Positions 7,640-52,787 of a stretch of 64,000 nt of DNA are shown piece by piece; positions within the stretch are counted from its first letter, which is position 1; every line of letters begins with the position of its first letter. The stretch comes from Escherichia coli. Its GTDB lineage: Bacteria > Pseudomonadota > Gammaproteobacteria > Enterobacterales > Enterobacteriaceae. Position numbers and translations under genes: made by a program. The notes under the pieces are model-generated. The model was not told the DNA's origin and made no database searches. It saw only the letters and a program-made list of their open reading frames with translations. The stretch is taken from NCBI RefSeq assembly GCF_003334765.1, contig NZ_QOWT01000017.1, one strand, 5' to 3'.

Positions 7640-7826
<187 letters not shown>

Positions 7827-13277: not shown

Positions 13278-15520
<2,243 letters not shown>

Positions 15521-32733: not shown

Positions 32734-32770
32734 TGGCTTAGCCAGACTAAGCCACCGCTCTCGTTTTTTA
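32734..32770 (+). terminator. Rho-independent terminator of yigF-yigG
   Basis: GGTGGCTTAG-CCAGA-CTAAGCCACC hairpin followed by CGTTTTTT; T-run overlaps the corA stop codon. Confidence 0.7.
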
Positions 32771-33718
32771 CAACCAGTTCTTCCGCTTAAAGTACAGATA
32801 CGGTGCCAGGCCCGCGAGGATCATAAAGATAATCGCGCCAGGGTAGCCGAAGCTCCACTTCAGTTCTGGCATAAACTCAAAGTTCATGCCATAGCTGGAA
32901 GCAACGAGCGTCGGCGGCAGGAATACCACGGATACCACCGAGAAGATTTTGATGATGCGGTTCTGCTCGATGTTGATAAAACCCATTGCCGCCTGCATCA
33001 GGAAGTTCACCTTCTGGAACAGGGATTCGTTATGCGGCAGCAGGGATTCGATATCTCGCAGGATTTCACGCGCCTGCTCCAGTTGCCCACCCGGTAAACG
33101 CGCTTTACGCACCAGGAAGTTGAGCGCGCGCTGGGTATCCATCAGACACAGGCGAACTTTCCAGCCGATATCTTCCAGTTCCGCCAGAGTGGAGAGCGCC
33201 TCGTCGTACTCATCGCCCTGATGCCCTTCCATAATCACCCGGCTCAACTGCTCCAGGTCGCTATAGATATTTTCAATTTCATCTGCCAACTGTTCGATTT
33301 TGGTTTCGAACAGATCCAGCAGCAACTCGTAGGCGTTACCGTCTACCATCGACTGGCTACGGGCACGCATACGATACAGACGAAAAGCGGGCAGTTCACG
33401 CTCACGCAGAGTAAACAGACGACCATCACGGATGGTAAATGCCACAGTGGAGTTACCGGCGTGATCTTCCGCATCTTCAAAGAAGAAGAAGGAGTGAATA
33501 TGCAGGCCGTCGTCGTCTTCAAAGAAACGTGCCGATGCTTCGATGTCTTCCAGTTCCGGGCGGGTTGCCAGGCTCTGGCCAAGTTCAGATTGTACGCGCA
33601 GTCGCTCGTCGTCGTCCGGTTCGACAAGATCAATCCATACTGCATTTACAAGGGGTTGTGACTCTTCGACTTCCAGCCGGGTCAGTCGGTTATTTTCCAG
33701 TTGAAATGCGCTCAGCAT
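32768..33718 (-). CDS. corA: Magnesium/cobalt transport protein CorA
   Basis: 316 aa from [16 protein letters not shown]; C-terminal TM pair with YGMNF motif. Confidence 0.95.
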
Positions 33719-34087
33719 GACCGGGACTCCCAATGCTTAAAATATCGGACAGTTCGGTGGGCACACAGAAACAAATTGGGTTTCAGACCATTAAACAGCC
33801 TGACTCAGCGCGACGGGAAAAATTGAGGTCGCTGACAACCGCTAAGGCTATCAGCAAAAAGGGATAGCCTTAGGAGTTGATCCTGGATGACAGGATAGTG
33901 AGCCAGTATCTACTGGGTGTGTCCAAGGCGAATGTCCTCTTAGAGTGATCGTGCGCGCATGTTACGCCAGCAAAATTTTGCCGTCAACACGCAACAGAAC
34001 ACCACAGAACAATAGTTGAACTTCGCGCTTTTTGGTACTCGTCAAGGTCGCTAACAGGATAAAAAAATCCCACATCCAGGACCTATA

Positions 34088-34852
34088 ATGGCGCATCAGC
34101 TACTCATTGGTAAAGGAATGATCACCTTGAATCTCAAACGGATTTTTCTCGCCCTCACCTTACTTCCCTTGTTTGCTGTTGCCGCTGATGATTGCGCACT
34201 CTCAGATCCGACGCTGACCGTACAGGCGTATACCGTTAATCCTCAAACAGAGCGGGTGAAAATGTACTGGCAAAAAGCCAATGGCGAAGCGTGGGGAACG
34301 TTACATGCTCTGCTGGCGGATATTAATAGTCAGGGTCAGGTGCAGATGGCGATGAACGGCGGCATCTATGATGAAAGCTATGCGCCGCTCGGTTTGTACA
34401 TCGAAAACGGTCAGCAGAAGGTGGCGTTAAATCTCGCTTCAGGTGAAGGGAATTTCTTTATCCGTCCTGGCGGCGTGTTTTATGTCGCGGGAGATAAAGT
34501 CGGCATCGTTCGTCTGGATGCCTTCAAAACCAGTAAAGAGATTCAGTTTGCGGTGCAGTCAGGGCCAATGTTGATGGAAAACGGTGTAATTAATCCGCGT
34601 ATTCATCCCAACGTCGCCTCAAGCAAAATTCGTAACGGTGTTGGGATTAATAAACATGGGAACGCCGTGTTTTTGTTGAGCCAGCAGGCAACAAATTTTT
34701 ATGATTTTGCCTGTTATGCCAAAGCGAAACTGAACGTTGAGCAGCTGCTTTATCTTGATGGCACGATTTCACATATGTATATGAAAGGCGGGGCAATCCC
34801 GTGGCAACGCTATCCTTTTGTCACCATGATTTCCGTCGAGCGGAAAGGTTAA
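34088..34852 (+). CDS. yigE: Exported protein YigE (function unknown)
   Basis: 254-aa ORF with signal-peptide-like N-terminus; start codon choice uncertain. Confidence 0.75.
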   Translation: MAHQLLIGKGMITLNLKRIFLALTLLPLFAVAADDCALSDPTLTVQAYTVNPQTERVKMYWQKANGEAWGTLHALLADINSQGQVQMAMNGGIYDESYAPLGLYIENGQQKVALNLASGEGNFFIRPGGVFYVAGDKVGIVRLDAFKTSKEIQFAVQSGPMLMENGVINPRIHPNVASSKIRNGVGINKHGNAVFLLSQQATNFYDFACYAKAKLNVEQLLYLDGTISHMYMKGGAIPWQRYPFVTMISVERKG

Positions 34853-48523: not shown

Positions 48524-48730
48524 AAAAAAACGCCTGCTCTTATTACGGAGCAGGCGTTAAAACAGGTCTGTATGACAACAAGTGGGTGCTTCACTCAACG
48601 TTGTGTCCATGGTGTCTGATGAGGCATAAGCGACATCTGTCAGTGGACGATAAGCACCGTAAACGGCTCTGCGTCATTCCGGAGTTTATGAGGCACTAAG
48701 GCGAACATAAGAGATGGAATGAGCATCTAC
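48524..48730 (-). ncRNA. glmZ: GlmZ small regulatory RNA (activator of glmS translation)
   Basis: Minus-strand sequence from 48730 reads GTAGATGCTCATTCCATCTCTTATGTTCGCC... and ends in hairpin AACGCCTGCTC-CGTAATAAG-AGCAGGCGTT plus TTTTTTT; matches GlmZ (207 nt) as I recall it; no ORF. Confidence 0.85.
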
Positions 48731-52350: not shown

Positions 52351-52427
52351 TGGTCGGCGAGAGAGGATTCGAACCTCCGACCCACTGGTCCCAAACCAGT
52401 TGCGCTACCAAGCTGCGCTACTCGCCG
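52351..52427 (-). tRNA. proM: tRNA-Pro (CGG)
   Basis: 77-nt match to tRNA-Pro; reverse complement reads CGGCGAGTAGCGCAGCTTGGTAGCGCAACTGGTTTGGGACCAGTGGGTCGGAGGTTCGAATCCTCTCTCGCCGACCA. Confidence 0.93.
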
Positions 52428-52469
52428 AAATACTGCTTTTTGAATTTTTAGTTCAATTCTTTAAAGTCG

Positions 52470-52556
52470 TGGTGCGAGGGGGGGGACTTGAACCCCCACG
52501 TCCGTAAGGACACTAACACCTGAAGCTAGCGCGTCTACCAATTCCGCCACCTTCGC
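52470..52556 (-). tRNA. leuT: tRNA-Leu (CAG), long variable arm
   Basis: 87-nt tRNA; reverse complement begins GCGAAGGTGGCGGAATTGGTAGACGCGCTAGCTTCAGGTG and ends ...GGGGGTTCAAGTCCCCCCCCTCGCACCA. Confidence 0.93.
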
Positions 52557-52576
52557 ATTGTCACAACTTCTAATAA

Positions 52577-52653
52577 TGGGGTGGCTAATGGGATTCGAAC
52601 CCACGACAACTGGAATCACAATCCAGGGCTCTACCAACTGAGCTATAGCCACC
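52577..52653 (-). tRNA. hisR: tRNA-His (GUG) with extra 5' G(-1)
   Basis: Reverse complement reads GGTGGCTATAGCTCAGTTGGTAGAGCCCTGGATTGTGATTCCAGTTGTCGTGGGTTCGAATCCCATTAGCCACCCCA. Confidence 0.93.
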
Positions 52654-52710
52654 ACTACAAATCTTGTTACGCGGTATTACTACCACCGCAGCTCAAGCGC
52701 CGGGACTAAA

Positions 52711-52787
<77 letters not shown>

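Follow-up and report, generated by a model that had tools for sequence, protein, structure and literature searches.

The perfect 11-bp inverted repeat of the corA-yigE spacer is, with a probability of about 0.93, one half of a translation-coupled, Rho-dependent transcription attenuator, namely stem C of the corA mRNA leader. It lies in a window of 64 kb of Escherichia coli DNA, in which a 601-base segment around the corA leader matches many complete E. coli chromosomes at 100% identity and has a counterpart in all 5,426 genomes of the searched collection. The element is already known, being the very E. coli corA leader that has been published and neither a new member nor a new variant. The founding paper on the Salmonella corA leader and corL is reportedly that of Kriner and Groisman (2015, J Mol Biol). 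The upstream ORF (uORF), the alternative folds and the dependence on Rho and Mg2+ were published for Salmonella (2016, PMC5314796) and for the E. coli sequence (2024, PMC11552253). The present analysis established how the leader is built and conserved, which alternative folds it has and that the hairpin is stem C, while Rho dependence, the effects of the corL start codon and the Mg2+ response are taken from the published papers of two laboratories. The worth of the work is corrective. The hairpin, first noticed in a sequence-only reading, is given a named helix (stem C), and the wrong ORF is replaced by corL. The promoter, the Shine-Dalgarno sequence, the UUG-initiated corL with its stop in the hairpin 5' arm, and stems B to E are kept across 80 Enterobacterales species.

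Promoter, transcription start and the uORF corL

The features that delimit the leader and its uORF are as follows.

32768–33718, minus strand: corA coding sequence (ATG at 33718), the regulated gene
From 34088 (ATG), plus strand: yigE
33959–33987, minus strand: corA promoter, with -35 TTGACG (33987–33982), a 17-bp spacer and -10 TAACAT (33964–33959)
33953–33958, minus strand: GC-rich discriminator GCGCGC, directly after the -10
33950–33952, minus strand: corA transcription start site (TSS) as placed by the papers' numbering, A 33952 (Salmonella) or G 33950 (E. coli)
33935–33939, minus strand: corL Shine-Dalgarno sequence GAGGA, mRNA nt 14–18, 9 nt 5' of the UUG
33870–33926, minus strand: corL, the RefSeq ysgD, with a UUG start and 18 codons, MDTPSRYWLTILSSRINS (RefSeq annotation and translation)

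The spacer measures 369 bp between the ATGs at 33718 and 34088, in agreement with the earlier estimate of about 370 bp. Its conservation was followed in 80 Enterobacterales loci obtained by a CorA search with one genome per species. They span Escherichia to Yersinia, Serratia, Pectobacterium, Dickeya, Erwinia, Pantoea, Hafnia and Edwardsiella, and include no Salmonella locus; 79 leaders were aligned and pairing statistics were calculated on 76 distinct sequences.

Within 33600–34200, a promoter scan predicts no sigma-70-like site other than TTGACG-17-TAACAT on the minus strand. The 10-mer TAACATGCGC is found upstream of corA at the same distance in 80/80 Enterobacterales loci, whose leaders are 211–304 nt long. 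Note that this conserved 10-mer belongs to the segment at 33953–33964 (minus strand) in which the -10 TAACAT is joined to the GCGCGC discriminator. GC-rich discriminators are typical of promoters under stringent control (ppGpp/DksA), which provides a lead for corA.

The position of the TSS follows from the numbering used in the two published systems. When +1 is set at A 33952, which lies 7 nt after the -10 hexamer, the bases changed in the Salmonella mutants are identical at the same E. coli positions in 12 of 12 cases (G24 C25 C26, G84 G85 C86, T97, C99, G121, G123, C143 and C145). For E. coli, +1 falls on G 33950, judging from the primers corA41-71txR and corA68-99txR and from Ptet and lacUV5 fusions that start at GATCACTC. 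The numbering of the two sources thus differs by 1–2 nt. Both starts are upstream of the hairpin, and the long regulatory leader of corA that had been proposed is borne out, with a length of ~234 nt according to the papers' numbering.

The uORF of this leader is corL, which is identified with ysgD by the published constructs. The primers for start-codon mutants alter exactly the TTG at 33926 to AGG or ATG (PMC11552253), and the corL-lacZ fusion ends in ...ATCAACTCC (...AACTCC; PMC11552253); both match ysgD. Ysg​D was discovered through ribosome profiling with stalled initiation complexes, its tagged protein was detected, and it was found again in a reporter-transposon screen (PIRT-seq). A UUG-initiated corL of 17–19 codons is present in 80/80 other Enterobacterales species sampled, with the conserved amino terminus MD(T/A)PS(R/K/T)(Y/C)WL. 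Bases G14 A15 G16 G17 A18 of its Shine-Dalgarno sequence are invariant in the 79 aligned leaders. The stop codon UAA (33872–33870) is located inside the hairpin 5' arm; it is embedded in C-UAA-GGC, the start of this arm, in all 80 species, one of which uses UAG. The uORF that matters is therefore corL and not the 6-codon ORF highlighted previously, and the sequence-only reading probably missed it owing to its non-ATG start. The lesson for genome scanning is that UUG-initiated regulatory uORFs escape ORF searches restricted to ATG.

Two further observations concern this region. Insertions in ysgD had a marked fitness defect in non-filtered, and not in filtered, lake water in an RB-TnSeq study (PMC11188689). 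Given that ysgD and corL are one and the same, the defect may stem from deregulation of corA or from polarity on corA rather than from any role of the peptide. A putative 32-codon ORF from the PIRT-seq screen, CDS177 (33851–33949, minus strand), runs from an AUC at nt 4 to a UGA at nt 100–102, overlaps corL in a different frame and crosses the loop of stem C. Most Enterobacteriaceae keep this frame open, at least 15 other genera have it shifted or broken, and no start codon is conserved; CDS177 was rejected as a real ORF and is probably a by-product of nucleotide conservation.

Alternative folds of the leader and their conservation

The positions of the stems were reconstructed from the mutant names of PMC5314796 and the primers of PMC11552253, and the leader was folded with ViennaRNA, unguided and in stepwise lengths. 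The helices considered are listed below.

33842–33873, minus strand: perfect 11-bp inverted repeat, stem C, the ON/antitermination helix, mRNA nt 80–90 paired with 101–111 across a 10-nt loop
33836–33879, minus strand: extended stem C, nt 74–117, with five further pairs past a C.C mismatch
33880–33916, minus strand: two inner hairpins of stem A inside corL, nt 37–50 and 57–73, arms of a three-way junction
33923–33929, minus strand: stem A base, 5' strand GCCUUGG including the corL UUG, nt 24–30, paired with nt 80–86 (CUAAGGC, including the corL UAA)
33829–33857, minus strand: stem B, the OFF helix, nt 96–107 paired with 113–124; nt 101–107 are common with the hairpin 3' arm
33806–33834, minus strand: stem D, which forms with C, GCGAC/GUCGC at nt 121–125/139–143, or in the published register 119–123/143–147
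33783–33803, minus strand: stem-loop E, nt 150–170, -8.2 kcal/mol

The arms of the repeat, CTAAGGCTATC and GATAGCCTTAG, were located by inspection of the sequence and by a repeat search at 33842–33852 and 33863–33873. The description of a perfect 11-bp repeat was thus correct, and its loop and end needed amendment: the loop has 10 nt and not 11, and the repeat ends at 33873 and not at 33874. The repeat lengthens to 17-nt arms that are 88% complementary (33836–33852 and 33863–33879), with a predicted fold energy of -14.3 kcal/mol for stem C and of -20.4 kcal/mol for its extended form. In the corA mRNA the hairpin occupies nt 80–111 of the ~234-nt leader. On the corA strand it is followed by CGGUUGUCAGC and by no U-run, as expected from the previous statement that it is not a classic terminator.

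Perfect 11-bp inverted repeats with a loop of 3–20 nt occur twice in the 64-kb window, for a mean of 0.54 in composition-matched simulations. The second one (48529–48558, minus strand) is the terminator of the GlmZ sRNA (48524–48730; Rfam RF00083, 218 bits). Chance statistics alone do not settle the nature of the corA hairpin; the 79 aligned Enterobacterales leaders retain it, and compensatory changes are seen among them.

The assignment of the hairpin to stem C relies on the correspondence with published mutations and on the reuse of its 3' arm by stem B. The Salmonella mutation M1 (84–86), which disrupts stem C, falls in the hairpin 5' arm. In E. coli, the primers that create the ON state change CAACTC (74–79) to GTTGTG and GGTTGT (113–118) to ACAACT (PMC11552253). 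With these changes the hairpin becomes a perfect helix of 17 bp, and stem B loses its 3' strand. The other stems are found at the positions expected from the same data. Mutations M1* (24–26) and M1 (84–86) fall in the pairing of the stem A base, which involves nt 80–86 and is thus in competition with the hairpin, whose 5' arm includes these bases. Stem B, to which the Salmonella bases T97/C99 with G123/G121 (M7/M5) map, was flagged by a terminator-like scan (12 pairs, loop of 5) and has a fold energy of -16.7 kcal/mol. In stem A the start codon UUG of corL (nt 27–29; 33924–33926) pairs with its stop codon UAA (nt 81–83; 33870–33872), a pairing that is invariant in 76 sequences.

Folding of growing transcripts yields a succession of these helices that agrees with the published scheme. 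The nt 1–96 segment folds into the three-way junction (stem A), nt 1–111 into stem C and nt 1–125 into A+B, while the folds of nt 1–148 and of the full leader contain C+D. For nt 1–172 the energy is -55.3 kcal/mol when stem C is forced and -50.7 kcal/mol when stem B is forced. Holding nt 66–96 single-stranded, as with a ribosome at the corL stop, leads to stem B, and holding nt 27–62 single-stranded, as in an early stall, leads to C+D. A+B and C+D are mutually exclusive in the folds and their positions agree with the Salmonella mutants, which marks the leader as a member of the published element. The hairpin is situated in the corA 5' leader together with a UUG-initiated corL that overlaps stem A and ends at the foot of stem C, and with stem-loop E. 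A C-rich, G-poor zone extends over nt 21–100 with a C/G ratio of 2–2.8, as expected for a rut region.

Conservation was scored for the ON structure, defined as the two inner hairpins, extended C, D and E. It is 94.4% paired in the 76 sequences versus 20–40% with slid partners, and 11 of its pairs are changed on both sides, a number reached by 0/500 shuffles (5.3 ± 1.4 in shuffled alignments). Extended stem C, with 16 pairs, is 95.5% paired and has 5 pairs changed on both sides. Stem C is kept across the Enterobacterales leaders and the TSS lies upstream of it, so that both conditions proposed for refuting the hairpin turned out in its favour. The second inner hairpin (nt 57–73) shows changes on both sides in 4 of 6 pairs, and stem-loop E (91.6% paired) in 2 pairs. 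The covariation is modest because the leader is almost invariant. The stem A base (99.2% paired, almost invariant) and stem B (92.5% paired) show no covariation beyond shuffles in the 76 distinct sequences. Such an absence is expected, each strand having two partners and one of them carrying also the start or the stop codon. As for stem D, the register GCGAC/GUCGC is 99.7% paired in 76 sequences versus 77% for the 119–123/143–147 register implied by the Salmonella mutations M5/M6.

Proposed switch and rival readings

The published work on E. coli provides the functional frame for this anatomy. Expression of corA drops between 20 and 50 µM Mg2+, and higher intracellular Mg2+ is associated with lower corA (PMC11552253). 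Regulation by Mg2+ requires the 5' region and not the promoter (PMC11552253), and mutants that lock the ON or the OFF fold lose or abolish regulation (PMC11552253). Changing the corL UUG to AGG raises corA expression, while changing it to AUG lowers it (PMC11552253). In the Rho R66S mutant, ChIP detects more RNA polymerase in the corA ORF (PMC11552253), and in vitro Rho/NusG-stimulated stops are found at U211 and G216-U220 (PMC11552253). The control by Rho and a leader peptide that the sequence-only reading had advanced by analogy with Salmonella is therefore experimentally shown for E. coli (PMC11552253). The stops map to the following zone.

33731–33742, minus strand: approximate Rho/NusG termination zone, mapped from PMC11552253 and uncertain by 1–2 nt owing to numbering offsets

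The R66S substitution only cuts the Mg2+ regulation from 3.3-fold to 2.4-fold (PMC11552253), and 24% termination occurs without Rho (PMC11552253), so that other factors contribute. Two options for the target of Mg2+, the RNA or corL translation, are given by the authors (PMC11552253).

The switch that best accounts for these data would work as follows. By the papers' numbering, transcription of corA starts about 234 nt upstream of the gene, and the leader encodes corL, whose stop lies in the hairpin 5' arm. Two partners are open to this arm (nt 80–90), the corL start region in stem A and nt 101–111 in stem C; the 3' arm (nt 101–111) likewise has two, the 5' arm in stem C and nt 113–124 in stem B. 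Under efficient corL translation, the ribosome at the stop codon would cover the 5' arm and allow stem B to form. With the C-rich rut then exposed, Rho would halt the polymerase just short of the corA AUG, which is the OFF state. If corL is translated poorly or the ribosome stalls early, stems C and D would sequester the rut and permit read-through into corA, the ON state. The ribosome-footprint step, which we infer, agrees with the published view that efficient corL translation favours B.

Other explanations for the hairpin have to be weighed against this switch. The repeat might be a DNA operator for a dimeric regulator, or a chance palindrome: its perfect 11-bp arms, 10 bp apart, could accommodate a dimer, and a window would contain about 0.5 such repeats by chance alone. 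Either is very improbable. The repeat lies at +80 to +111, within the transcript, it is kept in 79 leaders along with both competing partners, and the published ON and OFF mutants work through the RNA helix. Its variation moreover retains pairing through G.U pairs, U78.G113 in 65 sequences and U87.G104 in 21, which can form only on the corA-sense strand; the helix is thus a feature of the RNA and not a DNA palindrome. A reading compatible with the switch is that the hairpin is mainly a double-stranded entry site for RNase III that controls decay of the corA mRNA. Lim et al. (2012) are said to have found RNase III cleavage sites in the corA 5' UTR, and extended stem C is the longest near-perfect helix of the leader (16 pairs, -20.4 kcal/mol). 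A helix of this length, interrupted by a mismatch, is however short for a typical RNase III substrate. Unlike the switch, a nuclease site also leaves unexplained why the corL stop is placed exactly in the 5' arm and why stem B overlaps the hairpin. PMC11552253 and papers on RNase III cite control of corA mRNA by this enzyme, but as the main role of the hairpin it is unlikely. There is a similarly small chance that extended stem C (33836–33879) is in addition an RNase III site of which only the ON conformer is cut, a case in which the Rho switch would be coupled to mRNA decay.

The remaining rival concerns the reading frame upstream of the hairpin.

33940–33960, minus strand: 6-codon ATG "mini-ORF", a string only, rejected as a gene

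A regulatory leader peptide encoded by this frame had been put forward. The string ATG CGC GCA CGA TCA CTC TAA is present at 33960–33940, all 81 sequences have its ATG unchanged, and this ATG opens a 6-codon frame in most Enterobacteriaceae; the role as leader peptide did not stand and is given hardly any probability. The ATG consists of the last two bases of the -10 hexamer TAACAT and the next G, and it is invariant because it belongs to the conserved -10/discriminator. It sits 6–10 nt upstream of the TSS used by two laboratories (33950–33952), and inspection of the leader identified no Shine-Dalgarno sequence for the frame. The conservation that had been suggested as a check fails for the peptide: the ORF starting at this ATG has 4–51 codons in other species, with neither frame nor length conserved, entering corL in frame in about 24 species and reading through in another frame elsewhere. 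The two genome-wide translation screens (ribosome profiling and reporter transposon) reported ysgD and not this ORF. An invariant ATG may thus be a mere part of a promoter, which is a further lesson for scanning. Note that in the about 24 species in question (Yersiniaceae, Hafniaceae and related genera; loci L042–L052, L058–L059, L062–L063, L065, L068, L070, L073, L081 and others) the ATG of the -10 region shares the frame of corL, and no stop codon separates the two. As a weaker possibility, an unmapped upstream start in Yersiniaceae, Hafniaceae and some others could give an ATG-initiated CorL with 11 additional residues.

The attenuator with stem C as its ON helix is thus retained as the preferred reading. 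An intrinsic terminator at stem B was also considered and rejected: its tail is CCUCAAUUUU, with the U-run 6 nt after the stem, and the published stops are at 211–220, ~90 nt downstream. Rfam has no family over the corA leader, either in a permissive search of 33400–34400 or at gathering score in the whole window; weak hits to mir-76 and AaHKsRNA54 were far below threshold and were discarded. The whole-window Rfam scan also yielded elements unrelated to corA on the minus strand, namely Erse sRNA (14915–15166), naRNA4 (CssrE; 7692–7769) and a cluster of four tRNAs (52354–52787).

Comparison with known systems

The general principle of the corA leader, a short leader ORF whose translation status picks between RNA folds, is that of trpL/hisL and tnaC. 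Unlike trpL/hisL, the corA leader is without tandem regulatory codons or an intrinsic terminator. Accordingly, the CorL peptide MDTPSRYWLTILSSRINS has no run of codons for a regulating amino acid and its leader no intrinsic terminator, which sets it apart from the trpL/hisL type. The stop in corA is Rho-dependent as in tna, but it is reached through competition between hairpins and not through a stalled peptidyl-tRNA that blocks rut.

The mgtA/mgtL leader is alike according to the authors: its uORF lies in a three-way junction, its stems are alternative, and good translation of the uORF leads to repression. The two differ in their peptides: that of mgtL contains many prolines and acidic residues, that of corL a single proline. 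For E. coli mgtA no Rho dependence was detected, per the authors. The Mg_sensor family (mgtA leader, Rfam RF01056) has no match in 33400–34400 at E up to 10 and none at gathering score in the whole window.

The closest relatives are the corA leaders themselves. That of Salmonella enterica (PMC5314796) belongs to the same gene and shares with E. coli the leader length, stems A–E and the position of corL. In the Salmonella model A+B expose the rut and C+D hide it, with stem-loop E further downstream (PMC5314796), and the logic is the same: efficient corL translation favours stem B, which leaves the rut exposed to Rho termination (PMC5314796). Differences are limited to small indels after about nt 125 that shift the numbering (stem E at 152–172 versus 150–170 in E. 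coli) and to the termination or pause sites, found at U211-U220 in E. coli and at about 220–250 in Salmonella. The E. coli corA 5' region studied by Vezina Bedard et al. (2024, RNA Biol, PMC11552253), in which corA responds more weakly to Mn2+ than to intracellular Mg2+, is the same locus with the same sequence and shows no difference from the one described here: its stem C is the present hairpin and its corL is the RefSeq ysgD.
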